Assembly (NCBI RefSeq): GCF_000014265.1
Contig: NC_008312.1
Location: forward strand, 4,260,001 to 4,292,000
Direction of reading: 5' to 3'
Length of the DNA stretch: 32,000 nucleotides
Source of the DNA: Trichodesmium erythraeum IMS101
GTDB taxonomy: Bacteria; Cyanobacteriota; Cyanobacteriia; Cyanobacteriales; Microcoleaceae
Made by a program: the position numbers and the translations under genes
Shown: positions 13,430 through 32,000 of the stretch, one piece after another
Numbering within the stretch: position 1 is the first letter of the stretch
How the letters are laid out: every line of letters begins with the position of its first letter
The notes under the pieces: generated by a model
Databases searched by the model: none
Told to the model about the DNA's origin: nothing
Seen by the model: the letters and a program-made list of their open reading frames with translations, nothing else

Positions 13430-13669
13430 ACTAGTTCTCCTGATTCTTTGATTACCTAACATTTTGTTAAAGTATAATTATTATCTGTTATGATACCCCA
13501 GTTTTCCTGCACGGTAAATCATGGTAGGGAGGTTGCATTTATGGAGGTTTCGCTATGGGATATGAAACGCATTTTTGTGATGCAAGGTCCGTACAAAGTT
13601 TTAGTTATGGCGATGTTGTTTATCAATTTGAAAAGGGCTGTAAGTTTAGTTTTTGATAATTATCTTTGT

Positions 13670-14851
13670 TTAATCATGGCTATAGCGATAATCTGCAACT
13701 ATCATATCCCCTAGTCCTTCTGTCTTGGCAGTTGGTTCTTGAATTTCTTCATCATTCTCGATACTCCAACGACGAAGACTATGGAGCACATAAGTCTTAA
13801 GATCGTCTACAGTCACGAAACCCTTTTTCTCCCGGTCTGCATCACCGCTGAGTCCTTCTATTAGGTAGTGGGTGAAGACTCCAGAATTTTTCTCTGGTGA
13901 CTCTAGGGCTTTTTGCTGTGCTGTACTCGCGGCAATTAAGGCAAAACCTTCAGCTAATTCATAAGCATTTTGAATGAATTGGGGCTCGTCAATTCCTCGT
14001 CCGGTTTCGACTCCCATATGACAAGCATCCAATGTCAGTACTAAACGTCTTGCTTTGCTAGAATGCATGGATTTTTTTATGTCGGCTAGAGACAAACCTG
14101 TTTTTTCGATGGTTGGTAAACGGGTATCCCTGACTATGAGCATAGGTTGTTCATCGCGCCCAAGTTTACCGTGACAAGCAAAATACACCAGCAATAGGTC
14201 ATCTACATCGACCATATTGCATAGGTTAATTAATTCAGCTTCTATATTGTTGTGGATGGGGAAGCGGCGGCTATCAGATTCAAGATCATCATGTAAACAC
14301 ATGACTGTGTATCCAAGTTCTTTGAGTTTCTTTTCTAATTTTTGCACATCTTTTACACAGAATTTTAACTTGTGAACTCCTGGATCATTATAGCGGTTGA
14401 CTCCTACCAAAAAAGCCCAACGATTTTTTATGGGTTGACGTTTTTCTTCTTCGAGCTTTCTTTTTTTTGTGCCTCGAATTGTAGTTTCTGTCTTGGTTTC
14501 TGGTTTAAGGTTATCCAGAGTTGAGTTATCTGCAAAAGCATTTTCCAGTTCTATAATTAGATTGACTAGTTGTTGGTGACGTTGATCTTCTTCTTCGATT
14601 AAATCTTTTAAGAGACGTAACAGTAAGACAAGAGCATTTTCTTTGGTGTCACTGTGATATTTGTTATGTAAATAGCTAATTACTAAGTTTACTCTACTGG
14701 CCATACTGTTGGCTTGGGGTAAAAAACGCCAAGGTCTTAGTGGTTGATAAGTGGAAACAATAGACTGAAGGGCGCGATCGCTCTCAAATTGTTCACAGTC
14801 TAACAGAAATTGACGCAATTTTTGATATAGTTCAGGGGGAATGCCAGCCAT
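13670..14851 (-). CDS. Caspase-family (peptidase C14, orthocaspase/metacaspase-like) protease with N-terminal Death-like effector-associated adaptor domain (EAD-type)
   Basis: Intact His-Cys dyad: VYFACHGKLG (His codon 14170-14172) and LTLDACHMG (Cys codon 14011-14013). WAFLVGVNRYN is a typical p20 start. The N-terminal ~85 aa (14597-14851) are homologous to the C-terminus of the 500-aa protein and the N-terminus of the 372-aa protein. Confidence 0.85.
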   Translation of the reverse strand: MAGIPPELYQKLRQFLLDCEQFESDRALQSIVSTYQPLRPWRFLPQANSMASRVNLVISYLHNKYHSDTKENALVLLLRLLKDLIEEEDQRHQQLVNLIIELENAFADNSTLDNLKPETKTETTIRGTKKRKLEEEKRQPIKNRWAFLVGVNRYNDPGVHKLKFCVKDVQKLEKKLKELGYTVMCLHDDLESDSRRFPIHNNIEAELINLCNMVDVDDLLLVYFACHGKLGRDEQPMLIVRDTRLPTIEKTGLSLADIKKSMHSSKARRLVLTLDACHMGVETGRGIDEPQFIQNAYELAEGFALIAASTAQQKALESPEKNSGVFTHYLIEGLSGDADREKKGFVTVDDLKTYVLHSLRRWSIENDEEIQEPTAKTEGLGDMIVADYRYSHD

Positions 14852-15777: not shown

Positions 15778-17280
15778 TTATAAACAATACTTAAGCTTTT
15801 CTGCTAATTCAGATAAAGTTTGATTCCGAGTATCTGCTGGATCAATTGTACTACTAAGGGAGTTTACCAAAATAACCAGTACATTCTCATTGGTATCGCT
15901 ACGATACTTATTTACTAAAAAGCCAATCACTAGTCTGACTCGTTGGGCCGTATTTTTACCTTCTGGTAAGCTATTGGCCCAAGGAGAGAGCCGAGCCTGA
16001 CCTTTGAAAAAACTTTGTAGTTCTTGATTAGTTTCAAATTGGTCACACTCTAACAGAGCTTTATACAGTTGATGACGAAGTTCGTCAGTAATTCCTCGGG
16101 TCTTGTTGCCAGAAGGTGTCTGAGTAAGGTTTTCCTTTATTGCGGCTTTTAGATTTTGCAGGTGAGTACGCTTAGGACTCAGGAATTCCAGATCTGCTTG
16201 AATTTGACTTTGCAATTTTTTGCGGATGTAATTTAAAAAATCTTCCCACAAACTTAAGTCAGTATCGGGTAGCTCCCCTAGCTTTTCTAGTTTCATCCTA
16301 TAATTTTTTTCATTAGTAGCAATGGTATTTTTGTGGGCTTCCAATTCCTCTAAGTAGTCAGCATACTTAATATCTATATCCTGTAATTCTACAAGTAATG
16401 GTCTAAGTTGTTCTTGCCTATTTGGTGATCGGGAAATTTGACGGAAGCTTTTCTTGTGCTGTTCTATTTTGCTATACAGTTGTTTGAGCTGACCCTCGCA
16501 CCCGCGAGATTGATGATAGATATACTGTATCTTATGACGACACCACAAAAGAAGAAGTATTAACTCGGATGCCTTATCCATTTTCTTTTCCTCTGGATCC
16601 AGATTTTGGCATTTCAACCAAACTAGAATATGAAGTCGCTGACTAGGGTCTTTATGTCGGCTTTCATATTCAAAAATCGGGTTTCCCAGTAAATGACCTG
16701 TATTTATTAGCTCAGTTCTATTTGTTGTTGGCAGTAATTTAGCAACACAAGCATCTGCAAAATCTTGATGGTTTTCCTGTAATTCACTTGGTTGTCCAAA
16801 AAGTAATAGGGTTTGCCCTAGAGAAGCTTGAATTTGTGAGGGGAGTAGTAGGTATTGGGGATTAAGTTGAGCTAGTTGAGATAGGAAAAAAGTGCTTTGA
16901 GAATGTAGGGTGAAATCTATTGCATAAGTATCGTGTACTCGGTATGGACAGAGTAATCCTTGAAGTTGCCTATCACCAGACTTGGAGGTTATTTCAAAGT
17001 CTAATTTGGTTTGTTGATTAGGTAATAAAATTTCATATTCACTTTCTAGGTTATCTTCTGCTGCGGGAAAATACTGGTTATTTTGATAACTAATTAGTTG
17101 TTGTTGCAGATTTTGCAGTTCTGGAATATTCAGCTTATTTCCCAAATCTACTAACTGTTCCCACAACCGGGGTGCTTTTGAAGTAGGTTTTAATCCCTGG
17201 TTGATACTGTTGCGCAGATGGAAAGCATAGAGTACAAGACTGGGACTATGCAGTCCTATGGTCTGGGGTATTTCTTTCAT
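15778..17280 (-). CDS. Hypothetical protein: unknown ~270-aa N-domain, coiled coil, C-terminal EAD-type adaptor domain
   Basis: The C-terminal 105 aa (15781-16095) read GITDELRHQLYKALLECDQFETNQELQSFFKGQARLSPWANSLPEGKNTAQRVRLVIGFLVNKYRSDTNENVLVILVNSL. They align with the caspase N-terminus at roughly 40% identity by eye. The middle region is heptad-rich (KYADYLEELEAHKNTIATNEKNYRMKLEKL). Confidence 0.7.
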   Translation of the reverse strand: MKEIPQTIGLHSPSLVLYAFHLRNSINQGLKPTSKAPRLWEQLVDLGNKLNIPELQNLQQQLISYQNNQYFPAAEDNLESEYEILLPNQQTKLDFEITSKSGDRQLQGLLCPYRVHDTYAIDFTLHSQSTFFLSQLAQLNPQYLLLPSQIQASLGQTLLLFGQPSELQENHQDFADACVAKLLPTTNRTELINTGHLLGNPIFEYESRHKDPSQRLHILVWLKCQNLDPEEKKMDKASELILLLLWCRHKIQYIYHQSRGCEGQLKQLYSKIEQHKKSFRQISRSPNRQEQLRPLLVELQDIDIKYADYLEELEAHKNTIATNEKNYRMKLEKLGELPDTDLSLWEDFLNYIRKKLQSQIQADLEFLSPKRTHLQNLKAAIKENLTQTPSGNKTRGITDELRHQLYKALLECDQFETNQELQSFFKGQARLSPWANSLPEGKNTAQRVRLVIGFLVNKYRSDTNENVLVILVNSLSSTIDPADTRNQTLSELAEKLKYCL

Positions 17281-17464: not shown

Positions 17465-20400
17465 TTAGCCGATCGCGCAAAACCCTGCCCAGTAGAATGG
17501 TGATTCAAAGGGCTGATACTTATCTGACATTTGATGCAAACGACAGGCTAGATTCATTTCCAGGGTTGGACTCAGGGGGATTTTATTTTCTAAAATCCAT
17601 TTTTCCAACTCTTTTTTGGTTAGGTCTCGCAGCCAAAGTTGAGCTTGGTTAAGAGCGATCGCTACATTAGTCTGCTCCTGGGAATTTAGCAAATTTTTAT
17701 ACAACTGAATCATCAAAAGGGCTGTGGAGAGGTCATTAACAGTCCAGAGACTACTAACCACACTTGGACTCCCTGCATAGAGAAAACCGCTGGGCAGACC
17801 AATATATTCATCCCCAAGGGATTTAAAATCGCTCAGGCCTGTTTCGCAGGCGGAGAGGCTGGTGAGGCGACATTGACGCAAGTCTAAGGCGAAAATATCC
17901 CCTAAAGTTAGGCATTTTTCCAAATTAATCCCATTTCCATCTGCAGTTTCCTGAGGAGTTGGAGTTGTACTCCCTGCCAACAGCAGAGCAGAATCAATAG
18001 GCGATTTAAAATTAAAATAACCGCGACAGGCAAAATGAGCCACGTTGGTTTCAGCCAGACGTTCCTGGGTGAGGGCAGTTTTGGTAGCTTGTTGTCGTTC
18101 TAAGACGTCATCGTTAGGATAAAAGTCAGCGCGAATAGTGGCAACTTCTGGCTCGGTAAAACTGAGGTCTTCTGTAGGGTTCGTGACACTGAAAAAATGT
18201 TTGAGTGAGGAACGGTTCCAGGTTTGACTCAGTTGCAGCAGTTGGAGGCTGGGAGCATAGCTGAGACTTCCAGGAAAGCGCTCCATGAGTAAATCTCCAT
18301 TGGCTAAAGGCATGGCATGGAGGGGAAATAGGTGTAGGAACCGATGGGGAATGAGGATGAGGCGGTCGCATTTCTTTCCTTGCTGGTAAAAAATCTCGCC
18401 GACCTGGGTGAGGAGGCCATCGATATCAAGAATCTCGGCCAACCTTTTGAGGTTGGAGGCTAAATGGTCTTGCCACTGTTTTTTGTCTTCTTGCAAATAT
18501 GCAGTCAAATAATCATCTCCCCAATTTACTAAGGCTTCAAGCGTTTTTTTGTCAGTTTGTTTGACTAGCAGACTGTTGGCGGTCAGAATAAAGGTGATAA
18601 TTTTATCCTTCGTAATATACCACTCAATTATGGTAGTGCTTTCATCAATTCGACTTTGGGTATCACTCCAAGAAATCGGCTCTACCCTCTGAGTCAGGCT
18701 GAAGCTGGAGTCTATAGGCTTGATCCGTTCAAGTGTCTCCTCTAGCTGTTGCCTTGATAGCTGCAATTCTTGTTGTAGCTGTTGCTGTGATGCCATGAGC
18801 GATCGCCGCTGGGGTTCTTCTGGTGGGCTTGTATTTCCAGATAGTCGCTCTAGAACTCCTTGTAACCGCCTTTCTAGTGATGGAATGGTGCTTCGTAGTC
18901 GATCTAGCTCGGCGATGATCTCTTGGGGAACATCGCCTTTAGGATAGATGTCGCGCTTGGCTAGAAGTTCGACTAGGTTGCGAGTTTTGCTGCGTTCGGC
19001 TGTTTTGAAGGCTTGATCCCATTGCTCTAAATTGATGTATGTTTGCACCAGATTTTGATAAACTGATATTGCTTCTGCTATAATCTCTTGGCGGCGTTTG
19101 TCGGTAGTTGCCCAACTGCGGCTGAGTTCCACTGCAGCTATGGCTTTTTCATAGTTGTCGGCTGCGAGTTGCCAGTTTTGGTTGTCGAAATATAGGTAGC
19201 CTAAGTTGTTGGTGGTTTGTAGATGGTCGATGGGGTTTGCTTCCAGGGTACGCACCAGCAAAGCTTGTTGGAATGCAGCAATGGCGACTTCAATATTTTC
19301 GGCTTTTTCTCCCCTTATTCTGTAAATGTAGGCAGCGCCGAGATTATTTTGAGTCATTGCCCAGTCCATGGGGAAGTCAGTTTGGGTGAGTACCTGTAAA
19401 GCTTGTTGGTATTCAGCAATGGCAGCTTCAATATTTTCGGCTTTGTCTCCCCTTATTCTGTAAATGTAGGCAGCGCCGAGATTATTTTGAGTTGTTGCCC
19501 AGTCCATGGGGAAGTCTGTTTGGGTGCGCACCAGCAAAGCTTGTTGGTATGCAGCAATGGCGGCTTCAATATTTTCGGCTTTGTCTCCCCTTATTCTGTA
19601 AATGTAGGCATTGCCGAGATTATTTTGAGTTCTTGCCCAGTCCATGGGTAAGTCAGTTTGGGTGTACACCAGCAAAGCTTGTTGGTATGCAGCAATGGCA
19701 GATTCAATATTTTCGGTTTTGTCTCCCCTTATTCTGTCACTGTAGGCAGCGCCGAGATGATTTTGAGTCATTGCCCAGTCGATGGGTAAGTCAGTTTGGG
19801 TGCGCACCAGCAAAGCTTGTTGGCATGCAGCAATGGCAGCTTCAATATTTTCGGCTTTGTCTCCCCTTATTCTGTAAATGTAGGCAACGCCGAGATTATT
19901 TTGAGTCATTGCCCAGTCGATGGGTAAGTCAGTTTGGGTGCGCACCAGCAAAGCTTGTTGGCATGCAGCAATGGCAGCTTCAATATTTTCGGCTTTGTCT
20001 CCCCTTATTCTGTAAATGTAGGCAACGCCGAGATTATTTTGAGTCATTGCCCAGTCCATGGGTAAGTCAGTTTGGGTGAACACCAGCAAAGCTTGTTGGC
20101 ATGCAGCAATAGCAGCTTCAATATTTTCGGCTTTGTCTCCCCTTATTCTTTCTCTGTAGGCATTGCCGAGATTGTTTTGAGTTCCTGCCCAGTTGATGGG
20201 GAAGTCAGTTTGGGTGTACACCAGCAAAGCTTGTTGGCATGCAGCAATGGCAGCTTCAATATTTTCGGCTTTGTCTCCCCTTATTCTGTAAATGTAGGCA
20301 ACGCCGAGATGATTTTGAGTTCCTGCCCAGTCCACGGGGAAGTCAGTTTGGGTGCGCACCAGCAAAGCTTGTTGGCATGCAGCAATGGCAGCTTCAATAT

Positions 20401-22600
20401 TTTCGGCTTTGTCTCCCCTTATTCTTTCACAGTAGGCAATGCCGAGATGATTTTGAGTCATTGCCCAGTCCATGGGGAAGTCAGTTTGGGTGCGCACCAG
20501 CAAAGCTTGTTGGAATGCAGCAATGGCGGCTTCAATATTTTCGGCTTTGTCTCCCCTTATTCTTTCTCTGTAGGCATTGCCGAGATTATTTTGAGTTCCT
20601 GCCCAGTCCATGGGGAAGTCTGTTTGGGTGCGTACCAGCAAAGCTTGTTGGAATGCAGCAATGGCGGCTTCAATATTTTCGGCTTTGTCTCCCCTTATTC
20701 TGTCACTGTAGGCAATGCCGAGATTATTTTGAGTTCCTGCCCAGTCCATGGGGAAGTCTGTTTGGGTGAACACCAGCAAAGCTTGTTGGCATGCAGCAAT
20801 AGCAGCTTCAATATTTTCGGCTTTGTCTCCCCTTATTCTGTTACTGTAGGCAAGGCCGAGATTATTTTGAGTTTTTGCCCAGTCGATGGGGAAGTCAGTT
20901 TGGCTGTGCACCAGCAAAGCTTGTTCGTATGCAGCAATGGCAGTTTCAATATTTTCGGCTTTGTCTCCCCTTATTCTGTCACTGTAGGCATTGCCGAGAT
21001 TATTTTGAGTCATTGCCCAGTCCATGGGGAAGTCAGTTTGGGTGCGCACCAGCAAAGCTTGTTGGTATGCAGCAATGGCGGCTTCAATATTTTCGGCTTT
21101 GTCTCCCCTTATTCTGTTACTGTAGGCAATGCCTAGATTATTTTGAGTTGCTGCCCAGTCGATGGGGAAGTCAGTTTGGGTGCGCACCAGCAAAGCTTGT
21201 TGGCATGCAGCAATGGCAGCTTCAATATTTTGGGCTTTGTCTCCCCTTATTCTGTCTCTGTAGGCAACGCCGAGATTATTTTGAGTCATTGCCCAAATTT
21301 CCCGGTGACTCTTAGAGGTAAAGACTTTTAGCACGACTTCATAACCTGCAATACTAATTTCCATGTTGTTTGCTTTGTTACCCAGAGGAAATTCCTGAAT
21401 GAGGCCACTGAAATAACCAATAGACATAGCCATATCTTCTGCTACATCCGCCTCCACTTCAGAAAATATAGCAGTTGCCCGGTGTCGCAATATATCAGCA
21501 CAGTTACCATCAAGCTTATCTAAGTTTTGTTCTAGGAGTGGGTAAACAACTTTCGAGTTACCTTTGCTTTGTCTGGTTGCCTGCAATACCTCTCCCAAAA
21601 ACTTCAAATAATTTTGTTTGTCTATATCAGTTTTAATAGTACTTTTTAGTTCTTCAATGTCATTATTTGATTTTTGATTAGCTAATTTAACAGTCTCAAG
21701 CAACATCTCGTTTATCAGAGTGGGGACTTTAGAGAGATCTACTCCTAGATTTTCCAGAACCCTTACAGCTACTCCTTCTCCTTCTCGAATTAAACCCAAA
21801 AGTAAATGCTCTGTCCCAATATAATTATGTCCTAATTGCTGTGCTTCCTCCAAAGAGAATTCTAAAACTGTTTTAGCTCTAGGAGCAAATGGAATTTCTG
21901 CTTCTACATCTCCCGAACCACGGCCAATTATTTTTTCCACTTCAATCCGAGCATCCTTTAGGTTTACGCCCATATATTTTAGGACTTTGGCCGCTACCCC
22001 TGTTCCTTCTCCAATTAAACCCAGAAGGATTTGTTCTGTCTCTACAAAGTCATGTCCCAAGCGACGGGCCTCATCCTGGGCCAACATGATCGCTTTGATT
22101 GGTTTTTCGGTGAAGCGATCAAACATACTTTTAGACCTCTGACGAATATCCACCTCTACCTCATCAGTCTCAAGCAACATCTCGTTTATCAGAGTGGGGA
22201 CTTTAGAGAGATCTACTCCTAGATTTTCCAGAACCCTTACAGCTACTCCTTCTCCTTCTCGAATTAAACCCAAAAGTAAATGCTCTGTCCCAATATAATT
22301 ATGTCCTAATTGCTGTGCTTCCTCCGAAGAGAATTCTAAAACTGTTTTAGCTCTAGGAGCAAATGGAATTTCTGCTTCTACATCTCCTGAACCACGGCCA
22401 ATTATTTTTTCCACTTCAATCCGAGCATCCTTTAGGCTTACGCCCATAGATTTTAGGACTTTGGCTGCTACCCCTGTTCCTTCTCCAATTAAACCCAGAA
22501 GGATTTGTTCTGTATCTACAAAGTTATGTCCCAAACGACCAGCCTCATGCTGGGCCAACATTATCGCTTTGATTGGTTTTTCGGTGAAGCGTTCAAACAT
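17465..22600 (-). CDS. Giant 1711-aa protein: 2 x ClpC-type Clp_N domain, lead-in domain, ~15 x 46-aa TPR-like repeats, linker, C-terminal CHAT (caspase-like) domain with His-to-Arg at the catalytic His position
   Basis: N-terminus [50 protein letters not shown]... is the ClpC/ClpB N-domain signature and occurs twice. The repeat unit is [46 protein letters not shown]. CHAT motifs are [10 protein letters not shown] (expected HxxxHG) and [10 protein letters not shown], then [19 protein letters not shown] and [10 protein letters not shown]. Confidence 0.9.
19240..21300 (-). repeat. Intragenic array of ~15 near-identical 138-bp (46-codon) TPR-like repeats
   Basis: RIRG(D/E)K counted 15 times in the translation. 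The period matches the 138 bp measured directly in the homologous array of the neighbouring gene (CCATGG at 24792, 24930, 25068). Confidence 0.9.
21692..22600 (-). repeat. Tandem 474-bp duplication encoding the Clp_N module (copy 1 22166-22600, copy 2 21692-22126, 39-bp linker)
   Basis: AGTCTCAAGCAACATCTCG... starts at 21692 and again at 22166. The 145-aa copies differ at 8 residues (E3D, H18D, G21R, N26D, D29E, S51Y, S55N, S92L). The promoter-distal ~230 nt differ at only 2 nt by eye. Confidence 0.9.
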
Positions 22601-22671
22601 ATTTTCAGACTTTCGTTAGGGTTTCTAGCAAATATAACTACTATGATTTCGCTTAAAACGACATAATTCAG

Positions 22672-23040: not shown

Positions 23041-23124
23041 CTTAGTCCTAATATCCTTAGAGGGAATAAAGTCGTACGAGCCGAATTAATCCATGTTGGG
23101 TTTCCTTACCTCAACCCTACCTAG
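23041..23124 (+). repeat. Dispersed ~85-nt element, copy B
   Basis: CCTAATATCCTTAGAGGGAATAAAGTCG-TACGAGCCGAATTAATCCATGTTGGGTTTCCTTACCTCAACCCTACC is collinear with copies A and C. Confidence 0.7.
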
Positions 23125-23176: not shown

Positions 23177-23285
23177 CAGGGATGATTTTGGGGTCAGTTT
23201 AGAAAAGCAAATTGATACTTATTATCTGGTTGTTAATCTTTAAACCTAAAACCTAAAACCTAACACCTAAAACCTAAAACCTAAC
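23177..23285 (+). repeat. Solo copy of the 92-bp heptamer-bearing unit, same orientation as the 11499-11957 array
   Basis: CAGGGATGATTTT...ATTGATACTTATTATCTGGTTGTTAATCTTTAAACCTAAAACCTAAAACCTAACACCTAAAACCTAAAACCTAAC parallels 11499-11600 (CAGGGATGATTTT...ATTAATATTTGTTTTCTGTTTGTTAATGTTTAAACCTAAAACC...). Confidence 0.65.
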
Positions 23286-23569: not shown

Positions 23570-24199
23570 ATGGTTAAAACAATACCAGCTAGTCAAATTG
23601 ACCTATATTCTTTAGAAGAAAATTTTGGTTTAAAACGGGCATACGAACCCACTTTTTTCCCGGAATGGCAAGAAAATTTACCAGAATTGACGGAATTGGA
23701 AAAACAAGAATTAGTGCAGCTTAAAGCGGATTATTTGCGTCTTTCTAAACGTCCCATGTTAGAACCTCTGGTAAAAATGGTGGTATTATCACCTTTATTG
23801 AGGGCAGCAGGTTTTTATCGGGAACCCTTTTTTCTCTCCGCTGAAAAACAGATAAAAATTACTTCCGAAGATGGGGGAGCGATCGTTACAGGTAAAATTG
23901 ATATATTGGTTTATACCCCTCAATTTTGGGTATTAGTAATTGAGGCGAAACGGGTTGAATATTCATTACAAGTAGGTATTCCTCAAATATTGGCTTATAT
24001 GTTAGACTCTCCAGAAATCGAACAATCTGCTTTTGGATTTGTGACAAATGGTAGTGAGTTTAGATTTGTTAAACTACTTAAAAGAGATACTATCCAATAT
24101 GGATTATCTCGTTTATTTTCCATAGATAGTGGGGAAGATTTATATACTGTTGTGAGTATTTTTAAGAGCCTCGCTCAATTCGTGATTCAGCAAAATTAA
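23570..24199 (+). CDS. PD-(D/E)XK-type (HsdR-N-like) putative nuclease-fold protein, paralogue of 8906..9508
   Basis: GKIDILVY...WVLVIEAKRVEYSLQVGIPQILAYM gives a D...E-x-K...Q arrangement. It is the only plus-strand gene inside the island and sits between the two repeat-array genes. Confidence 0.55.
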   Translation: MVKTIPASQIDLYSLEENFGLKRAYEPTFFPEWQENLPELTELEKQELVQLKADYLRLSKRPMLEPLVKMVVLSPLLRAAGFYREPFFLSAEKQIKITSEDGGAIVTGKIDILVYTPQFWVLVIEAKRVEYSLQVGIPQILAYMLDSPEIEQSAFGFVTNGSEFRFVKLLKRDTIQYGLSRLFSIDSGEDLYTVVSIFKSLAQFVIQQN

Positions 24200-24309: not shown

Positions 24310-24390
24310 CAATATCCTTAGAGGAACTAAAGTCCAACTACGAGCCGAATTAATCTATGTTGGGTTTCGTTGCCTCAACCTAGTCTACAA
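24310..24390 (+). repeat. Dispersed ~85-nt element, copy C
   Basis: CAATATCCTTAGAGGAACTAAAGTCCAACTACGAGCCGAATTAATCTATGTTGGGTTTCGTTGCCTCAACCTAGTCTACAA. Confidence 0.7.
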
Positions 24391-24495: not shown

Positions 24496-27400
24496 TCAAG
24501 GATTTAATACTTCTTTTACACCTTCAATAAGGAACTGAGCAACAGGATGATCAATCATTTTTTCTAAAGCTGCTAAACCTCCTGCTTTTAATCCTCGGAT
24601 AATTCGATATTTTAACTGAGGATTTTTATCAACTTCATCCATAGCTTTAGCACTTAAAACTCTATAACTATCGTTAGGATAATCTTCTGAAAGTTGATTG
24701 AGTAGATTTTTAATATCTTTAGCTGCTTGTGCTAGGTCTTGATTAATTTTTCTGTAGGCATTGCCGAGATTATTTTGAATTGTTGCCCATTCCATGGGGA
24801 AGTCAGTTTGGGTGTACACCAGCAAAGCTTGTTCGTATGCAGCAATGGCGGCTTCAATATTTTCCGCTTTGTCTCCCCTTATTCTGTTTCTGTAGGCATT
24901 GCCGAGATTATTTTGAATTGTTGCCCATTCCATGGGGAAGTCAGTTTGGGTGTACACCAGCAAAGCTTGTTCGTATGCAGCAATGGCAGCTTCAATATTT
25001 TCGGCTTTGTCTCCCCTTATTCTGTAAATGTAGGCAGCGCCGAGATTATTTTGAGTTGTTGCCCAGTCCATGGGGAAGTCTGTTTGGGTGCGCACCAGCA
25101 AAGCTTGTTGGTATGCAGCAATGGCAGCTTCAATATTTTCGGCTTTGTCTCCCCTTATTCTGTTACTGTAGGCATTGCCGAGATTATTTTGAATTGTTGC
25201 CCATTCCATGGGGAAGTCAGTTTGGGTGTACACCAGCAAAGCTTGTTGGTATGCAGCAATGGCAGCTTCAATATTTTCGGCTTTGTCTCCCCTTATTCTG
25301 TCACTGTAGGCATTGCCGAGATTATTTTGAGTTGTTGCCCAGTCCATGGGGAAGTCTGTTTGGGTGCGCACCAGCAAAGCTTGTTGGTATGCAGCAATGG
25401 CAGCTTCAATATTTTCGGCTTTGTCTCCCCTTATTCTGTCACTGTAGGCAATGCCGAGATTATATTGAGTTCCTGCCCAGTCCATGGGGAAGTCTGTTTG
25501 GGTGCGCACCAGCAAAGCTTGTTGGTATGCAGCAATGGCAGCTTCAATATTTTCGGCTTTGTCTCCCCTTATTCTGTCACTGTAGGCATTGCCGAGATTA
25601 TTTTGAGTTGTTGCCCAGTCCATGGGGAAGTCAGTTTGGGTGTACACCAGCAAAGCTTGTTGGAATGCAGCAATGGCAGCTTCAATATTTTCGGCTTTGT
25701 CTCCCCTTATTCTGTCACTATAGGCATTGCCGAGATTATTTTGAGTTCCGGCCCAGTCGATGGGGAAGTCAGTTTGGGTGCTTACCTGCAAAGCTCGTTT
25801 GTATGCAGCAATGGCGGCTTCAATATTTTCGGCTTTGTCTCCCCTTATTCTGTCTCTGTAGGCATTGCCGAGATTATTTTGAGTCATTGCCCAGTTGATG
25901 GGGAAGTCAGTTTGGGTGCGCACCAGCAAAGCTTGTTGGTATGCAGCAATGGCAGCTTCAATATTTTCGGCTTTGTCTCCCCTTATTCTGTTACTGTAGG
26001 CATTGCCGAGATTATTTTGAGTCATTGCCCAGTTGATGGGGAAGTCAGTTTGGGTGTACACCAGCAAAGCTTGTTGGTATGCAGCAATGGCGGCTTCAAT
26101 ATTTTCGGCTTTGTCTCCCCTTATTCTGTTTCTGTAGGCAATGCCGAGATTATTTTGAGTATTTGCCCAGTCCATGGGGAAGTCAGTTTGGGTGTACACC
26201 AGCAAAGCTTGTTGGTATGCAGCAATGGCAGCTTCAATATTTTCGGCTTTGTCTCCCCTTATTCTGTCACTGTAGGCAGCGCCGAGATTATTTTGAGTCA
26301 TTGCCCAGTCCATGGGGAAGTCAGTTTGGGTGTACACCAGCAAAGCTTGTTGGTATGCAGCAATGGCAGCTTCAATATTTTGGGCTTTGTCTCCCCTTAT
26401 TCTGTCTCTGTGGGCATTGCCGAGATTATTTTGAGTCATTGCCCAGTCCATGGGGAAGTCAGTTTGGGTGTACACCAGCAAAGCTTGTTCGTATGCAGCA
26501 ATGGCAACTTCAATATTTTCGGCTTTGTCTCCCCTTATTCTCTCACTGTACCCATTGCCGAGGCTATTTTGAGTTGCTGCCCATTCAAAGGGGAAGTCAG
26601 TTTGGGTAAGCACCATCAAAGCTTGTTGGCATGCAGCAATAGCCGATTCAATATTCTGGGCTTTGTCTCCTCTTATTCTGTTACTGTAGGCAATGCCGAG
26701 ATGATTTTGAATAATTCCCCACTCTTTAGGAAACTCTTCTCGTCGAAAAATTTGACAAGCAATCTGATATCCAGTAATAGCAATTTCTAAGTTTATCGCT
26801 ATATTTCCCAATGTAAAATTGCCTAATAAATTGCTAAATCTAGTAAGAGATGAACCAATTCTATGTAATTCAACTGGTTCCGTATTTAACAGTATATTAG
26901 TTGACCATTCTTGTAATAACCCAATTAAATCTTCATTTAACCTCTCTAGATTTGCTTCCAAAAATGGATAAATTTTCCATTGAGGATTATCATCATTATC
27001 AGAAACAATATTTAGTAACTCTTCGAGGAAAGACAACTCAACAGAAATTAGAGGAATTTCATCAGGAATTGACAAACTAACTCCAGCAATTTTAACTTGA
27101 CGTTCCCACCTAGAAAGCTGAGAGAATTGTTTTGTTGCACCCTCCAAATCTCCACTCGTAAAAGACACCATTCCACGGGCGTAGGTAATCAGTGGTGGTT
27201 CAAATTCCGCTAAAGCAGTTGGAAAACTTTCTATAAATAACCCAAATCTAAACAACTCCTTCCAGTTTTTCTGCTTCAATCTCTCTTCAATAGCCAGTGC
27301 CAGTTTATGATTAAGCTGATTAGGCTGACTACAAGCAAGGGACATCCAATACTCAGCCGTTCCTAAGTCTCTCCTCCTCAAATCATCACCATCAAGTTGC

Positions 27401-27747
27401 TGTTTCACATAGTTACTGTAGAAATCTGCTAGTTCTTTTAACCGAGGCTTATCAAAACGCTTATCTTCCTTCAACTCTTGCAACAACAAATTTCGGACAT
27501 TTACATCCATTTCATAAAGCTCATAGCCTACCTCACGGCACAAGCGAGATAAAAGTATGCGAGCAACTGCCGTCCAAGGAGCTTGGGGGACAAAGCGAAG
27601 CCAAATTTGGTAGAGCAAATCAGGAGTAAGTGTCTGTGGAAACGCTGCATGACAAGCTAAATCAAGATGTGTACCGTCGAATTGTTGGGCAAATCCTACC
27701 ACCCTCTCAACAGCTATTTCCGAATCTATTGCTTTAGTTGAATTCAT
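24496..27747 (-). CDS. 1083-aa vWA-MoxR-associated protein: ~230-aa helical N-domain, lead-in domain, ~14.5 x 46-aa TPR-like repeats, ~85-aa helical C-terminal tail
   Basis: The ATG at 27747 overlaps the vWA stop (ATGA). The repeats use the same consensus as the CHAT protein, and RIRGDK was counted 14 times plus one truncated unit. The lead-in (FLEELL...YPFLEANLERL...FTLGNIAINLEIAITGYQ) is homologous to the CHAT protein's (FLGEVL...[11 protein letters not shown]...[18 protein letters not shown]). Confidence 0.85.
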   Translation of the reverse strand: MNSTKAIDSEIAVERVVGFAQQFDGTHLDLACHAAFPQTLTPDLLYQIWLRFVPQAPWTAVARILLSRLCREVGYELYEMDVNVRNLLLQELKEDKRFDKPRLKELADFYSNYVKQQLDGDDLRRRDLGTAEYWMSLACSQPNQLNHKLALAIEERLKQKNWKELFRFGLFIESFPTALAEFEPPLITYARGMVSFTSGDLEGATKQFSQLSRWERQVKIAGVSLSIPDEIPLISVELSFLEELLNIVSDNDDNPQWKIYPFLEANLERLNEDLIGLLQEWSTNILLNTEPVELHRIGSSLTRFSNLLGNFTLGNIAINLEIAITGYQIACQIFRREEFPKEWGIIQNHLGIAYSNRIRGDKAQNIESAIAACQQALMVLTQTDFPFEWAATQNSLGNGYSERIRGDKAENIEVAIAAYEQALLVYTQTDFPMDWAMTQNNLGNAHRDRIRGDKAQNIEAAIAAYQQALLVYTQTDFPMDWAMTQNNLGAAYSDRIRGDKAENIEAAIAAYQQALLVYTQTDFPMDWANTQNNLGIAYRNRIRGDKAENIEAAIAAYQQALLVYTQTDFPINWAMTQNNLGNAYSNRIRGDKAENIEAAIAAYQQALLVRTQTDFPINWAMTQNNLGNAYRDRIRGDKAENIEAAIAAYKRALQVSTQTDFPIDWAGTQNNLGNAYSDRIRGDKAENIEAAIAAFQQALLVYTQTDFPMDWATTQNNLGNAYSDRIRGDKAENIEAAIAAYQQALLVRTQTDFPMDWAGTQYNLGIAYSDRIRGDKAENIEAAIAAYQQALLVRTQTDFPMDWATTQNNLGNAYSDRIRGDKAENIEAAIAAYQQALLVYTQTDFPMEWATIQNNLGNAYSNRIRGDKAENIEAAIAAYQQALLVRTQTDFPMDWATTQNNLGAAYIYRIRGDKAENIEAAIAAYEQALLVYTQTDFPMEWATIQNNLGNAYRNRIRGDKAENIEAAIAAYEQALLVYTQTDFPMEWATIQNNLGNAYRKINQDLAQAAKDIKNLLNQLSEDYPNDSYRVLSAKAMDEVDKNPQLKYRIIRGLKAGGLAALEKMIDHPVAQFLIEGVKEVLNP
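24745..26745 (-). repeat. Intragenic array of ~14.5 near-identical 138-bp repeats, cross-identical to the array at 19240-21300
   Basis: Exact 138-bp period (CCATGG at 24792 / 24930 / 25068). Units are above 90% identical to each other and to those of the CHAT gene by eye. Confidence 0.9.
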
Positions 27748-28979
27748 AATGATTTTTGCCGGCTCAACTCATAAAAATCTTTCCCATACACATAGCGACC
27801 ACGCAAAGCATTGATAGCAGCATTAAATCCTTGAGGACTCATCTCAAACATTGGCACAAACCGAGCAATTTCCCCAGCAGTCGTGCCTTGCCAACTATCA
27901 TTAGGCATAGGATTTAGCCAAGCATAATAACGGACTGACTGCCGAAGTTGTTCAATAAACCTCTGGGTGCACTCAATTCGCTCTGGGTTATAATTACTCC
28001 TGGCAGCTCCAGCATCACTGACCATAAGTACTCCTGCTCTTTCATCGATAGCTCCTAAAATATCTGTAATTAGTTGAGCTTTGAGGCGAGTTGGGTCACT
28101 ATAAAAATATATTTCAGGATAATTATAAAAATAATAAACACTCGCCTGCTCAATATTTCCACCCCGTCGAGCTTTATCTATTAATTGACGGGATAAATGA
28201 TGAAAAGGAATCATTGAGCCACCTTGATCAACCAGTAACACAAGTTTAACTCGATTTACATAATTTGGCATCAGCACCGCTTCAATTAAGATGCATTGCT
28301 GACAAATCTTGGCTACCGTAGCTGGTACATTCAACTTGTCCGATATACCTTGGGGGACTGAACGACTTAAAAAACGCCAACTCTGCTTAATCTGCCGAGG
28401 GGTCACTGGCAGGTATTGAGCAGCTAGATCTTGGTATTCAGAAATCATTTCATTAGACCTATTATAATGTCGGATAGCTTGAATGACCAGTTCTGGTTCA
28501 TCTATTTCTAGGGGAATATCAGTCAATGGACTCGGTTTTGACACAGGTATTTCTGGCTCTTTTAATGGAGCTTTTTCCTCAAGTTGCTCAGATATGTTGC
28601 GAACAGGCGTCGCTGTAGATGGTAAAGTCGAAGAGTCCATAACTTCCTCAGACTCCTTTGATACAGGTCTAGTTGAAGCGCTAGTTGGGGAGGGATTCGG
28701 TGTATCTTCGACAGGTTGTGGTAATTCAGCAGAAGAAGGAGCATTGGTTATTGCCCGACCTAGAAGTTGATGTAACAGGCGGGCCTCCTGTTCAGATTTT
28801 GTCCACAAAGTACAACATAGTCGTTCTAAAGAGTCGCGATCGCCTATACCAAACCCACCTTGCAATGCCCTCAGCACTAACATATAGTCTTCAACTCCCA
28901 AAGGCAAGCCATATTGGCGCAAACTGTAAAAAAGAGACAGTAAGACCTTCAACAAAGGTACTTCTTCAACGACATTCAT
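27744..28979 (-). CDS. von Willebrand factor A (vWA, CoxE-like) domain protein with Pro/Ser-rich linker
   Basis: The ATG at 28979 overlaps the MoxR stop (ATGA), with AGGAGG 7 nt upstream. LVLLVDQGGSM is a MIDAS-position motif (DxGxS where DxSxS is canonical). VLMVSDAGAA is a typical later vWA strand. The N-terminal helical region resembles CoxE-type proteins. Confidence 0.75.
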   Translation of the reverse strand: MNVVEEVPLLKVLLSLFYSLRQYGLPLGVEDYMLVLRALQGGFGIGDRDSLERLCCTLWTKSEQEARLLHQLLGRAITNAPSSAELPQPVEDTPNPSPTSASTRPVSKESEEVMDSSTLPSTATPVRNISEQLEEKAPLKEPEIPVSKPSPLTDIPLEIDEPELVIQAIRHYNRSNEMISEYQDLAAQYLPVTPRQIKQSWRFLSRSVPQGISDKLNVPATVAKICQQCILIEAVLMPNYVNRVKLVLLVDQGGSMIPFHHLSRQLIDKARRGGNIEQASVYYFYNYPEIYFYSDPTRLKAQLITDILGAIDERAGVLMVSDAGAARSNYNPERIECTQRFIEQLRQSVRYYAWLNPMPNDSWQGTTAGEIARFVPMFEMSPQGFNAAINALRGRYVYGKDFYELSRQKSL

Positions 28980-29923
28980 TTTCTTTCCTCCTGGGAGGAG
29001 TATAAATATTCTCTATAATCATGCCAATACTTAAGTAGAACTTGAGCAAAAGGCAGTTCACCGTTTAGCTTCCCTAATACCTCCTCTTCAGGATATTGTC
29101 GTAGAATGGTAAACCAATCAATTAACTCACTGGTACTTACCTTTTTACCAGTTTTGCCACTATCTCTCTCCATCTGTTTTCTCAGTTCACCAAAGCGCCA
29201 TACTGCTTTTCTCATAACCTCCGGTGCTGCCTCTGGAAAATGAGCCTTAACAATGTTAACCAATTCAGCTTCATTAGGAAATTCGATATAATAAAAAAGA
29301 CAACGACGTAAGAAAGCATCTGGTAAATCTTTTTCTTCATTACTGGTAATAAATATAATTGGTGGTTCTTTAGCCTTAATTTCGTATTCTTTCTCTACTT
29401 CTTTTTCTTGACTTTTTATCTCTGGTATGGTAAAGCGCTTTTCATCTAGCACCTGAAGCAAATCATTAGGGAAGTCAATATCAGCCTTATCAATTTCATC
29501 AATTAGAATTACAGTACGCTGGGAATTTTCAAAAGCACGACCCAGTGGCCCTAGTTTAATATAATTCCAAAGATTATCAACCCTAGAGAGTTTCTGTCCA
29601 TCAAGACGGGCTAGTTGGGCATCGTGGAGGCGAGCGATCGCATCGTAAGTGTAACAACCATCTTTAGCCTTGCTTGTAGACTGAATATACCAAGGTTCGT
29701 AGGGTAAACCTAGCTCATAAGCCACAGCCCTCGCCAAGCGAGTTTTACCACTACCAGGTTCCCCCTTCAACAATAAAGGACGTTTTTGTAAAAAAATAGT
29801 CAGATTAACTGCCTCAACCAACTCTGGTGAAGGTATATAAGGTTCAAGTCCATGCAGTTCGCACTCCTGTTCCGAAGGTTGTCTTTCCCCCGTATAGAGG
29901 CGAGGAATCACTGAATCAACCAT
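28976..29923 (-). CDS. MoxR-type AAA+ ATPase
   Basis: Walker A LLKGEPGSGKTRLA, Walker B VILIDEIDKAD, and sensor/Arg region ITSNEEKDLPDAFLRRC. The ORF track starts at a TTG (29944). I prefer the ATG at 29923 because AGGAGGG lies 9 nt upstream (29932-29938). Either start overlaps the upstream gene's end. Confidence 0.85.
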   Translation of the reverse strand: MVDSVIPRLYTGERQPSEQECELHGLEPYIPSPELVEAVNLTIFLQKRPLLLKGEPGSGKTRLARAVAYELGLPYEPWYIQSTSKAKDGCYTYDAIARLHDAQLARLDGQKLSRVDNLWNYIKLGPLGRAFENSQRTVILIDEIDKADIDFPNDLLQVLDEKRFTIPEIKSQEKEVEKEYEIKAKEPPIIFITSNEEKDLPDAFLRRCLFYYIEFPNEAELVNIVKAHFPEAAPEVMRKAVWRFGELRKQMERDSGKTGKKVSTSELIDWFTILRQYPEEEVLGKLNGELPFAQVLLKYWHDYREYLYSSQEERK

Positions 29924-31026
29924 TTGGCCAACCCTCCTTCCCAACTACGGCCACAGTAATCACAAATTTGTCTATAAACCAGCTCAGGAACACCTCCTTG
30001 AGATTTTTGGAGTAATTCATCAACAGATATACTCTCAGGTACCATATTTTTTCGTACAACACTATTTTTCCATGTTTCTAAATGATAGTATGAAAATTTA
30101 CCAGTTTCAGGTAAGCATAAAGGGTCCTTAGGATATTTTGAATTTTCAAACTTCCAAGTTAGGGAAACTCCTGATTTACAAACTATTCCTTTATCATCAA
30201 CCAAAAACATTAATAAATAAGTTTTTTGGTGAGTAGCTTTTTCGACTATTGGCCACCAAAATTTTTTAATTAAATCTGGTAAAAAACCTGTAAAAGTACG
30301 GTGGAGTCCTGAAAAAATAAAAATTAAATTTTGAGTTTCTAAACATTGTAAAATTGCATTAATAACCTGTTCGTCTGTAGTATTTGAACCAAAAAATTCA
30401 GAAGAAATTTTTCCCCATAATTCCCTAATATCGCTCATCCGAGTTAAATCCCTTTGGATTTTACGTCCATTACTTAATTCTGGCAATTTACGTAATAGCC
30501 TAGTAAGCAGAGCTTTCTGACCACAATTTTCATCATACCCATCAATCAGAAAAGCTCCCGTTCGTTTGTGTGATTTTTGGCATTTTATAGCTTTTCTAAC
30601 AGTATCTTCTTGTTCTGAAAAATCAATATCAATTATTGATTGAAACAACTGGCTGTTATTATTATTGCCTAAAGATGTTGATGAATTTAAGGGTAAAGAT
30701 GGATTTTCTAATTCTTTTTTAACCTTGTTCCATAAATTATTAATTCTATGCCACATCTCGTCTTCTTCATAGTATTCATCTCTCAAATTTTCCAAAAAAA
30801 TTATAAATATACACCCATATTCTTGATGTCTTGTTTTTATTAAAATATCCAGATTTAACATCACTAATAACCCTGGTGTATTAGCTTCTTTCAGTTTATT
30901 TGATACCACATTTAATTCCTTAATTGCCCCGCAAAAACTACGCAAGTATTGAAAATTGGTAAAAATGTCGCATTCTAAAAGAACATCCCTGCATTCTTTA
31001 TAAAGTTCTCCTGGTAGCCCACTCAT
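29908..31026 (-). CDS. EAD-type adaptor domain fused to a degenerate (probably inactive) P-loop NTPase-like domain
   Basis: N-terminus MSGLPGELYKECRDVLLECDIFTNFQYLRSF shares the ELY-x5-LL-[DE]-C-[DE]-x-F...L-x-S signature with the caspase N-terminus. The Walker-A position reads FLIDGYDENCGQKALL (no GK[ST]). The Walker-B position reads LIFIFSGLH (no Asp). It is the first gene of the MoxR-vWA operon. Confidence 0.65.
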   Translation of the reverse strand: MSGLPGELYKECRDVLLECDIFTNFQYLRSFCGAIKELNVVSNKLKEANTPGLLVMLNLDILIKTRHQEYGCIFIIFLENLRDEYYEEDEMWHRINNLWNKVKKELENPSLPLNSSTSLGNNNNSQLFQSIIDIDFSEQEDTVRKAIKCQKSHKRTGAFLIDGYDENCGQKALLTRLLRKLPELSNGRKIQRDLTRMSDIRELWGKISSEFFGSNTTDEQVINAILQCLETQNLIFIFSGLHRTFTGFLPDLIKKFWWPIVEKATHQKTYLLMFLVDDKGIVCKSGVSLTWKFENSKYPKDPLCLPETGKFSYYHLETWKNSVVRKNMVPESISVDELLQKSQGGVPELVYRQICDYCGRSWEGGLAKWLIQ

Positions 31027-31520: not shown

Positions 31521-32000
31521 CTACTCAGAATTCGAGCATTTCACCTTTGCTTCTTCAGGTGTTGAAAATTTGTCAGGAATAAACATGAAACCGGACGGCT
31601 GACTCGGACAACGATAAACCCGAATTGAGTTCAACGGTACTTTTTGACGATCGCCAGTCCCTGATTTAAATATAATTTCTCCTGTAGCCCCCTGAACGAT
31701 GAAATTTTCATCTGCCAATGTCTTCTGAATTCCTTTGCTAGTAGGGCGAGTACCTTGTTCCTGAATACCTTTAAGAATTACCTGCATTGCGTCATAGCTA
31801 AAAGCTGTACGGGCGCTAACATAACCTTCCCAAAGTTTGACAGCGGTATCAAAAAAATCAGAATTGTTGAGAGGATGCCCAGGAACAATCAAAATCAGTT
31901 TTTCTAGGAGTTGATATCGTGTTTCTTGGGATTGATCTTGAGCAATTTTCAAGGTTCTCGGGCTATAAACTGACCAATTAGCTACTATCCAATTTTGACC
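31521..32000 (-). CDS. Periplasmic substrate-binding protein (LivK/Peripla_BP_6-like), C-terminal part; 5' end beyond the window
   Basis: The frame stays open from 31952 to base 32000 (GQNWIVANWSVYSPRTLKIAQDQ...). AFSYDAMQVILKGIQEQG and VQGATGEIIFKSGTGDR match the family's C-lobe motifs. Confidence 0.55.
   Translation of the reverse strand, partial: GQNWIVANWSVYSPRTLKIAQDQSQETRYQLLEKLILIVPGHPLNNSDFFDTAVKLWEGYVSARTAFSYDAMQVILKGIQEQGTRPTSKGIQKTLADENFIVQGATGEIIFKSGTGDRQKVPLNSIRVYRCPSQPSGFMFIPDKFSTPEEAKVKCSNSE

Follow-up and report, generated by a model that had tools for sequence, protein, structure and literature searches.

The 32,000-nt window analysed here, positions 4,260,001 to 4,292,000 of the Trichodesmium erythraeum IMS101 contig NC_008312.1, contains four overlapping minus-strand genes. 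They encode an adaptor-bearing protein with an inactive STAND (iSTAND) domain, a MoxR-type AAA+ ATPase, a vWA protein and a tetratricopeptide repeat (TPR) protein, and they probably form the core of a vWA-MoxR-iSTAND ternary conflict system. The four open reading frames (ORFs) were confirmed in an ORF listing and were identified by exact-sequence look-ups as Tery_2768 to Tery_2765; the look-ups also returned WP_044136805 (MoxR family ATPase), ABG51949, Tery_2763, Tery_2762 and the Tery_2760 caspase. The genes and their parts, in window coordinates and in the order of transcription, are as follows.

29908 to 31026, minus strand: gene 1 (Tery_2768, 372 aa), bDLD1/EAD3 death-like adaptor and inactive STAND domain
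28976 to 29923, minus strand: gene 2 (315 aa), MoxR-clade AAA+ ATPase (best Pfam match AAA_5, E 2e-12)
27744 to 28979, minus strand: gene 3 (Tery_2766, 411 aa), divergent CoxE-type vWA protein
24496 to 27747, minus strand: gene 4 (Tery_2765, 1083 aa), N-module and TPR array
27052 to 27747, minus strand: N-module of gene 4 (aa 1-232), mainly alpha-helical, probably the 'vWA-L' linker of Kaur et al. 2021
26746 to 27036, minus strand: leader of about 100 aa before the gene 4 array
24811 to 26742, minus strand: TPR array of gene 4, 14 units of 46 aa (138 nt; Pfam TPR_10, E 1.7e-47)
24499 to 24810, minus strand: tail of gene 4, 104 aa, with no family match

Consecutive core genes overlap by 16, 4 and 4 nt. 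The first overlap runs from the MoxR start codon (ATG, 29923-29921) to the stop codon of gene 1 (TGA, 29910-29908), and a Shine-Dalgarno sequence, AGGAGGG, lies within gene 1 at 29938-29932, 8 nt 5' of that ATG. The MoxR/vWA and vWA/gene 4 junctions are both ATGA, at 28976-28979 and 27744-27747, respectively. The MoxR ORF extends to a TTG at 29944 (322 aa) in the ORF listing, and the ATG form of 315 aa is the one annotated by NCBI. An earlier note, made from the letters alone, had described a translationally coupled operon of an EAD/dead-P-loop protein, a MoxR ATPase, a vWA protein and a repeat protein next to proteases. The AGGAGGG and both ATGA overlaps can be read directly in the sequence, every detail of the genes, junctions and motifs that could be tested proved correct, and family searches, motif alignments and synteny are all consistent with such an operon. 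Promoter and terminator scans gave chance-level results and are uninformative on the operon; no Rfam families or tRNAs were found in the window, and NCBIfam returned only sub-threshold matches (MadB_ATPase, SAV_2336_NTERM, Csx29, caspase_w_EACC1). All ten ORFs at the locus are intact, with no frameshift in the 1711-aa and 1083-aa repeat genes, and the four core proteins differ little or not at all among many Trichodesmium samples.

The gene 1 protein begins with a bDLD1 domain (aa 3-95, 30742-31020; Pfam E 1.7e-11), which is followed by the iSTAND domain (PF19995; aa 134-276, 30199-30627; Pfam E 2.2e-18, 67.6 bits against a cut-off of 24). Within the iSTAND match, GYDENCGQKA (30511-30540) takes the place of Walker A and IFIFSG (30307-30324) that of Walker B. 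When gene 1 was aligned with four homologues, the Walker A position read G-x(4-6)-G-Q-[K/R/Q] or was absent, and the acidic position of Walker B read S/Y/D/Y/D, i.e. acidic in two of the five sequences. Thus the P-loop that had been described as eroded has neither a conserved lysine nor a conserved Walker B aspartate across the five loci. An active STAND/NLR NTPase (Avs, bNACHT, AP-ATPase) was considered and rejected, there being no functional P-loop or Walker B and a NACHT match of E 0.097 on the isolated domain. No relative of the iSTAND protein was found in a PDB sequence-profile search. A pattern search of genome contigs with iSTAND, which reaches close relatives only, returned one other Trichodesmium metagenome-assembled genome (MAG).

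The nucleotide-binding motifs of gene 2, in turn, are intact as had been noted: Walker A is GEPGSGKT (29741-29764) and Walker B is ILIDEIDKA (29483-29509). The patterns GEPGxGKT and LIDE[I/M]DKA are invariant in the five loci, where the proteins share 57-76% identity across genera. Among solved structures, a profile search ranks midasin AAA domains closest (E 1e-19), and the protein is therefore placed in the MoxR/midasin clade.

The gene 3 protein consists of a conserved N-terminal helical block of about 75 aa, a variable linker rich in P, S, T and E, and the vWA domain, with a MIDAS-like D-Q-G-G-S-M at 28212-28232 and SDAGAAR at 27999-28019. D251 and D322, the MIDAS aspartates, and S255 are invariant in the five loci. 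Among the 120 closest matches to gene 3, PF05762 is on record for 119 of the 119 homologues, and these vWA proteins are uniformly short, about 240-430 aa. The homologue from Nostoc punctiforme (locus L008, 5676-7004) has a hydrophobic, transmembrane-like insert, …WMFWSFLLVIALSGGYVLFQWLA…, in the variable linker, with no counterpart in the Trichodesmium protein; it agrees with a published note that about 28% of the vWA proteins of iSTAND systems are membrane-anchored.

The first 330 residues of gene 4 have no Pfam or NCBIfam match. The helical N-domain of about 230 aa proposed for this protein is borne out as a module of about 232 aa, of which an AlphaFold2 (AF2) model (pLDDT 89, pTM 0.81) is mostly helical with two small hairpins; it matches no PDB fold (best E 0.27). 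Neither this domain nor the 372-aa protein of gene 1 matches a housekeeping family. A search with aa 1-330 returned 192 relatives, almost all from filamentous cyanobacteria; similarity (42-70% identity) is confined to the first ~225 residues, beyond which the proteins diverge fully. Their C-terminal partners include FGE-sulfatase, GUN4, receiver, TPR, WD40, HEAT, AAA_35, DO-GTPase2, lipase, S1, TGS, ARC6 and HTH domains. A profile search of 1.84 billion representatives placed 1,895 clusters in the family, and in all 150 of the top 150 family matches the module lies at or near the N-terminus (within ~80 residues).

Homologous contexts were sampled at seven loci of filamentous cyanobacteria, those of Nostoc punctiforme, Nostoc sp. 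TCL240-02, a Nostoc MAG, Scytonema hofmannii and three others. The order iSTAND, MoxR, vWA, N-module gene is found in all seven, with every sampled N-module homologue directly 3' of the iSTAND-MoxR-vWA triad, so that synteny of the four genes extends to at least seven other genomes. An iSTAND/MoxR overlap of 13-16 nt is kept in five of the loci (L008-L011 and L014). Given the Pfam E-values and the same order in seven other loci, the association of the four genes is not due to chance.

Kaur et al. 2020 (eLife 9:e52696) defined four MoxR-vWA ternary systems. In the second, the third component is an inactive STAND protein that often bears an EAD at its N-terminus, bDLD1/EAD3 being one of those seen; the MoxR of this system is without the extensions of the VMAP type, and its vWA protein starts with a CoxE-like helical domain. 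T. erythraeum IMS101 was in the genome set of that study. The present locus has the same gene order, an eroded iSTAND with bDLD1/EAD3, a MoxR without VMAP-type extensions, a CoxE-like vWA protein with an N-terminal helical block, a variable arm after the vWA gene, additional effectors that share the adaptor, and a filamentous cyanobacterial host. There appears to be no categorical difference between the two. The probability that the four genes make up the core of a ternary conflict system of the vWA-MoxR-iSTAND type, in the split vWA configuration and working by the mechanism proposed below, is put at about 0.6.

The earlier note had assigned the genes to a vWA-MoxR-VMAP system, and of this assignment the MoxR-vWA ternary conflict type is retained; the VMAP subtype is not, the third component being iSTAND with an N-terminal bDLD1 (EAD3). 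The two systems have in common the MoxR-vWA core, the EAD logic, overlapping effectors and an enrichment in multicellular bacteria, whereas no VMAP domain and no VMAP-type MoxR motifs were detected here: hmmscan gave no VMAP family match in any protein of the locus. Pfam holds VMAP models, and the library clearly contains models from the same papers (iSTAND, bpMoxR, bDLD1, EAD8). In the 53 residues before Walker A of the MoxR protein there is no tryptophan and no WxhapG or PsWRxa, the N-terminal motifs that define the VMAP-type MoxR (Kaur et al. 2020).

In this scheme, the N-module of gene 4 is probably the published vWA-L linker, split off from the vWA protein and joined to a variable C-terminal domain. 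This reading follows from its position, its helical nature, its varied C-terminal partners, the synteny in seven of seven loci and the overlap of the partners with the effector list of the 2021 paper. A split vWA arm is the minority arrangement according to Kaur et al. 2021 (eLife 10:e70394); however, it appears to be the rule in this cyanobacterial clade, since the closest 119 vWA homologues are all short.

The locus exceeds the four genes, and the functional unit would take in three more bDLD1 proteins and a TPR-CHAT protein. The neighbouring features are listed below.

31521 to 32000, minus strand: 3' end of the upstream gene (last 143 codons at 31521 to 31952), which runs past the window end and encodes 981 aa in full
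23570 to 24199, plus strand: Tery_2764, DUF450/HSDR_N PD-(D/E)xK-like protein (Pfam HSDR_N, PADLOC PD_DExK)
17465 to 22600, minus strand: Tery_2763 (1711 aa), four Clp_N repeats (21641 to 22600), 15-unit TPR array (19250 to 21316) and caspase-like CHAT domain (17468 to 18415)
15778 to 17280, minus strand: Tery_2762 (500 aa), 'X' module (16111 to 17280) and C-terminal bDLD1 (15850 to 16095, Pfam E 5.8e-8)
13670 to 14851, minus strand: Tery_2760 (393 aa), bDLD1 (14564 to 14848, E 6e-10) and Peptidase_C14 orthocaspase domain (13733 to 14422, E 1e-16)

Around the single MoxR-vWA core, bDLD1 is found on four proteins, namely the iSTAND protein, the caspase, the X-module protein and a Metallophos-PBP protein. 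The last of these is the product of the upstream gene, separated from Tery_2768 by a gap of 494 nt. Where this gene is complete (public Trichodesmium contig L001), it encodes bDLD1, a calcineurin-like phosphoesterase (Metallophos) and a periplasmic-binding-protein domain (Pfam Metallophos, ANF_receptor, Peripla_BP_6), and the first ~100 aa of the protein are 56% identical to the bDLD1 of Tery_2762 (E 3e-36). The catalytic dyad of Tery_2760, which has been catalogued as a T. erythraeum orthocaspase (PMC7475262), is intact, with the histidine in FACHGK (14165-14182) and the cysteine in DACHMG (14012-14029). The gene is transcribed, and its transcript levels differ with growth conditions (PMC7947765). 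An EACC1-caspase system was rejected for this gene, since the 131-aa ORF 5' of the caspase has no transmembrane segment or family match and caspase_w_EACC1 (NCBIfam) is sub-threshold (107.8 against 140).

The bDLD1 sequences appear to fall into two types. The hub type, on iSTAND, gives an alignment score of 111 between Trichodesmium and Nostoc, and the client type, on the effectors, 40-58% identity and scores of 184-261. Between hub and client the identity is 23-37% and the scores are 49-92. In these two genomes, the two subtypes would thus predate the split of Trichodesmium and Nostoc. The presence of bDLD1 on the iSTAND protein and on its neighbours is what the EAD principle predicts, by which the third component of the core and the nearby effectors share an adaptor.

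Similar wiring can be seen in other cyanobacteria. In the Nostoc locus L010, the order is TPR-CHAT, X+bDLD1+Metallophos (as one protein, the orthologue of the upstream gene product), bDLD1-iSTAND, MoxR, vWA and module-TPR; this is the closest other locus, and therefore the whole neighbourhood is conserved between the genera. A CHAT gene is located inside L008, L009 and L014, and in the first two it immediately adjoins iSTAND. In Scytonema (L011), Peptidase_C14 is fused directly to iSTAND, a connection that in Trichodesmium would run from bDLD1 to bDLD1, and a Microseira protein (P0008) fuses the gene 4 N-module straight to X. Matching adaptor pairs include TIR-bDLD1 beside bDLD1-iSTAND (L012) and EAD8-PNP beside EAD8-iSTAND (L013). 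These fusions and adaptor pairs support the wiring proposed for the Trichodesmium locus.

With respect to the published systems, the particulars of Trichodesmium are four bDLD1 proteins per core with distinct hub and client subtypes, a TPR arm with a twin array in the neighbouring ClpN-TPR-CHAT gene, and clients that are a caspase, an X module and a Metallophos-PBP protein, whereas the bDLD1 example of the paper has a trypsin client. The X family (~390 aa) had 249 matches, from filamentous cyanobacteria apart from one Desulfobacteraceae match, with bDLD1, bDLD1+Metallophos, bDLD1+trypsin or PNP as tails. In the AF2 model, X has an alpha/beta part and then three helices of ~45 aa; a CorA-like identity was rejected, as there were only weak fold matches to the CorA cytoplasmic domain (E 1.5e-3, TM about 0.2).

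Pfam matches Clp_N, TPR_10 and CHAT in Tery_2763. Its CHAT domain keeps the cysteine motif SACETG (17837-17854), and the catalytic histidine is replaced by arginine (HFACRG, 18020-18037). The arginine is common to T. erythraeum GBRTRLIN201, ALOHA_ZT_67 and one ENA contig. The histidine is retained in Trichodesmium MAG_R01 and another contig, and Nostoc and other relatives have H..HG. Judging from these sequences, the CHAT domain of Tery_2763 is probably a lineage-specific pseudo-protease. The ClpN-TPR-CHAT protein of T. erythraeum probably serves as a co-sensor or decoy without catalytic activity. At the 5' end of the gene, a 474-nt tandem duplication (21691-22610, 96% identity) doubles a pair of Clp_N repeats; the duplication is recent and concerns an N-terminal substrate- or adaptor-binding domain. 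Like Csx29 of the type III-E Craspase, Tery_2763 combines TPR and CHAT, and Csx29 is its closest solved CHAT relative (NCBIfam Csx29 sub-threshold, E 2e-17), but Tery_2763 differs in its N-terminal Clp_N repeats and in the change of the catalytic histidine to arginine. A type III-E Craspase was rejected, with no gRAMP/Cas7-11 or cas match (PADLOC, NCBIfam, Pfam) and no CRISPR-like repeats in the window.

The opposite-strand gene Tery_2764 is probably an inserted cassette outside the system, since it is flanked by direct repeats of 67-70 nt that are 92-93% identical, at 23050-23116 and 24311-24380. The core of the direct repeat, GTTGGGTTTCNTTNCCTCAACC, occurs three times in the window against zero expected. 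Uma2-type nuclease genes interrupt or abut the homologous loci L011 and L014.

Directly downstream of the caspase gene, a 497-aa protein is encoded on the minus strand (11969-13462). It has no family match and consists of a signal or transmembrane segment, a beta-rich region, a transmembrane segment, a long coiled coil and C-terminal transmembrane segments; it may belong to the system, as a membrane effector or partner, or have no relation to it. Directly 3' of its gene is a non-coding 92-nt tandem array (11512-11956, 4.8 copies, 96%), each unit of which holds about five copies of the heptamer AAACCTA; a run of the heptamer recurs at 23242-23284, and there is no Rfam match. Positions 1-11000 of the window are AT-rich (27-37% GC) and ORF-poor, which is typical of the non-coding-rich Trichodesmium genome, and hold the sucC 3' end and sucD-like CoA-ligase ORFs (124-618, 1308-2180), an XRE HTH gene (2970-3311), and DUF3768, aldo-keto reductase and DUF4332 genes. 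The surrounding genome is repeat-rich.

The TPR array of gene 4 has, by Tandem Repeats Finder, a period of 138 nt (46 aa) and 14.2 copies with 93% matches, and the twin array of Tery_2763 has 15 units of the same 46-aa TPR-like repeat; both show 92-93% matches and no indels. Amino acid variation within the units is concentrated at positions 6, 7, 10, 17, 20, 21, 38 and 45. These eight codons of 46 hold 77% of the non-synonymous pairwise differences, and the Nei-Gojobori ratio of non-synonymous to synonymous change (dN/dS, omega) is 3.2 at them against 0.35 elsewhere. Because the eight positions had been picked after seeing the data, the test was repeated by selecting the positions in one array and measuring them in its twin; at the selected sites omega was then 1.63 and 2.64, and elsewhere 0.54 and 0.42, values limited by the units being non-independent paralogues that exchange sequence. 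Nearly all codon types found at the hypervariable sites differ in the amino acid that they encode. The pattern is suggestive of positive selection on the array units, with the scaffold codons of both arrays under purifying selection (omega 0.35-0.5). The array had been called hypervariable, and this holds for about eight of the 46 positions per unit and not for the scaffold, where the units are ~92% identical in nucleotides. By analogy with TPR_12/KLC-type geometry, we infer that the hypervariable residues would lie on the concave helix-A face.

Nucleotide identity between the two arrays (91.6%) equals that within them (91.6-92.7%), nearest-neighbour units interleave between gene 4 and Tery_2763, and the leader of ~100 aa before the array is common to both proteins (E 2e-17). 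Taken together, these similarities point to a common pool of units, maintained by recombination, from which both arrays draw. Nostoc arrays have the same period and far more diverged units; therefore, the homogenisation or expansion is lineage-specific. The few hypervariable, positively selected positions in near-identical, shuffled repeats are reportedly found in the fungal HET-type NLRs studied by Paoletti, Saupe, Dyrka and colleagues, and the variation in the Trichodesmium arrays matches that pattern. Plus-strand ORFs inside the arrays (24739-26790, 683 aa; 24780-25898; 20072-21136, 354 aa; 19492-20079) were rejected as genes, being antisense stop-free frames produced by the repeats. In the public Trichodesmium assemblies examined (L001-L006), all short-read contigs with the operon end inside the gene 4 array, and the exact gene 4 protein is absent from a collection of 15 billion proteins. 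The arrays are thus systematically lost or collapsed in metagenome assemblies, which leaves their natural diversity unsampled.

The identities of the domains, the state of their motifs, the gene order, the fusions and the patterns of selection are observed, and from them the interactions of the proteins and the direction of the signal are inferred by domain logic and conserved context. A potential mechanism can be described as follows. The 14-unit TPR array would use the ~8 diversifying residues of each unit to bind a protein ligand that stems from an invader or from damage to the cell; the array is taken as the sensor because 77% of the non-synonymous differences fall in 8 of 46 codons at a dN/dS above 1. 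The helical N-module would couple the array to the vWA protein, whose MIDAS-type site (D251/S255/D322) may hold a partner peptide. The MoxR AAA+ ring would then spend ATP to remodel or release the complex and thereby set the activation threshold. The hydrolysis-dead iSTAND may serve as an assembly platform which, once licensed, would oligomerise and cluster the hub bDLD1, and this in turn would recruit the client bDLD1 of the orthocaspase Tery_2760, of Tery_2762 and of the Metallophos-PBP protein. Activation of the caspase may be induced by proximity, as in the CARD-caspase pair on the apoptosome, and the output would be proteolysis and the death or arrest of the affected cell of the filament.

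Several points weigh against this assignment and mechanism. The gene 3 protein scores 23.7 bits against Pfam VWA_CoxE, under the cut-off of 26.4, the first serine of its DxSxS is not conserved in the five loci, and no solved relative of its vWA domain was found in the PDB sequence-profile search. No fusion of vWA to the N-module occurs among 120 vWA and 150 module homologues. The non-independence of the array units weakens the case for selection on the sensor surface, and the loss of the CHAT catalytic histidine suggests that part of the locus may be decaying. PADLOC recognised no defence system at the locus and gave only generic AAA, caspase and PD-DExK matches. The conflict role of iSTAND systems, in immunity or abortive cell death, is a prediction of the source papers (Kaur et al.), and no experimental study of any iSTAND system was found in the literature searched. 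Finally, in the model of Kaur et al. the sensor is in iSTAND, and repeats on the vWA arm are effectors.

This last point leads to the strongest of the alternatives, in which the signal flows in reverse: iSTAND would sense the invader (e.g. as a nucleic-acid receptor), the TPR protein would be an effector or scaffold released or assembled after MoxR, and the bDLD1-caspase would process it. It is the published model, in which superstructure-forming repeats occur on ~70% of vWA arms and count as effectors (Kaur et al.); in addition, the iSTAND core is the constant, conserved element of the locus, and near-identical units (~92% nucleotide identity) would suit a regular scaffold. However, the focusing of non-synonymous change at eight positions with dN/dS >1 fits a diversifying binding surface and not a passive scaffold, and the FGE/CLec domains that occupy the same slot in homologues are putative antigen sensors, diversified by diversity-generating retroelements, in related systems (PMC10907252). 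Reverse flow is therefore considered rather unlikely.

A more specific proposal, which we regard as doubtful, is that the locus is an 'apoptosome by parts', i.e. a platform that would act upstream of the caspase-dependent programmed cell death of Trichodesmium and activate it. The sensing part of this proposal, equally doubtful, is that the gene-converting, positively selected TPR arrays of Tery_2765 and Tery_2763 would detect a phage or damage signal; the output part, no firmer, is that MoxR-vWA would power the dead STAND and the hub bDLD1 would activate Tery_2760, a phosphoesterase and a coiled-coil effector. The likeness to the metazoan apoptosome and CARD-caspase-9 lies in a STAND platform with an N-terminal death-fold adaptor, a caspase with a matching adaptor, a repeat array as candidate ligand sensor, and a hub and a client that differ in sequence as the CARDs of Apaf-1 and caspase-9 do. 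In contrast to the apoptosome, the STAND protein here cannot hydrolyse NTP, the energy step would be outsourced to MoxR-vWA, and the sensor repeats are on a separate polypeptide. The homology of bDLD1 to Death/CARD is distant and at profile level only, as claimed by Kaur et al.

Somewhat more doubtful still is an endogenous death pathway, triggered by stress or development, that would activate Tery_2760 in the programmed cell death of bloom collapse under nutrient or oxidative stress. Trichodesmium is a model for caspase-associated programmed cell death in which Tery_2760 is a catalogued orthocaspase with condition-dependent transcript levels (PMC7475262, PMC7947765), and the periplasmic-binding-protein type ligand domain on the upstream bDLD1 protein suggests small-molecule sensing. 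Yet the diversifying TPR array and the high turnover of the C-terminal domains are signatures of an arms race, and the family is enriched in conflict contexts (TIR, PNP, nucleases, STAND NTPases). The stress-death and anti-invader readings are compatible and non-exclusive.

It is very improbable that the locus is a decayed, non-functional remnant, with an inserted nuclease cassette, a mutated CHAT and arrays that are only recombination-prone repeats. The change of histidine to arginine in T. erythraeum-type CHAT sequences and the repeat-flanked DUF450 gene between gene 4 and the CHAT gene, in a repeat-rich genome, would fit such decay, but the ten intact ORFs, the near-identity of the core proteins across Trichodesmium samples, the purifying selection on the array scaffold codons and the intact MoxR and caspase motifs argue against it. 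Least credible is a housekeeping role in which the MoxR-vWA pair would act as chaperone or metal-insertase (CoxD/CoxE- or RavA/ViaA-like) in the maturation of a metabolic enzyme, beside chance neighbours, for although the vWA is of the CoxE type and MoxR-vWA pairs are classically chaperones, no candidate client enzyme was found in the cluster (Pfam, NCBIfam), the pair is preceded by iSTAND and followed by a variable-domain gene in seven of seven loci, and the neighbours are caspases, CHAT, TIR, PNP and death-like adaptors.

The vWA-MoxR-iSTAND assignment can also be set beside other repeat-bearing systems. Antiviral STAND NTPases (Avs, bNACHT) and fungal NLRs have TPR-type sensor arrays in common with the Trichodesmium locus; however, they hold effector, active NTPase and sensor in one polypeptide, whereas here at least four proteins share these parts and the STAND protein is inactive. 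In the Esr pathway of Actinomycetales, a MoxR-vWA pair is also located downstream of a sequence-divergent repeat sensor, and this is the only experimentally supported MoxR-vWA threat-sensing relative found, in a 2026 preprint (bioRxiv 10.64898/2026.09.08.750141). Esr differs in having a surface-exposed beta-propeller sensor, a kinase/FHA phosphorelay and an Esx secretion output, without iSTAND, death-like adaptors or a caspase.

The existing conceptual picture is unchanged by the locus, which instantiates it and details it. What is added is the orthocaspase link, the division of bDLD1 into hub and client, the X family with its alternating attachment to N-module and bDLD1, and the twin diversifying TPR arrays. 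Since vWA-MoxR-iSTAND systems are computational predictions only, it is useful to have a complete example from an organism that is in culture and ecologically important, and the locus offers a concrete set of five or six proteins for reconstitution. Questions that may be addressed in this way include what activates bacterial caspases, whether bacterial death-fold domains do recruit clients to a hub, and whether a MoxR-vWA pair can stand in for the NTPase activity of a STAND platform. At this locus, matching death-like adaptors connect the orthocaspase Tery_2760 with a defined upstream module, and the twin TPR arrays would be a bacterial case of the receptor diversification by repeat shuffling that is known from fungal NLRs.

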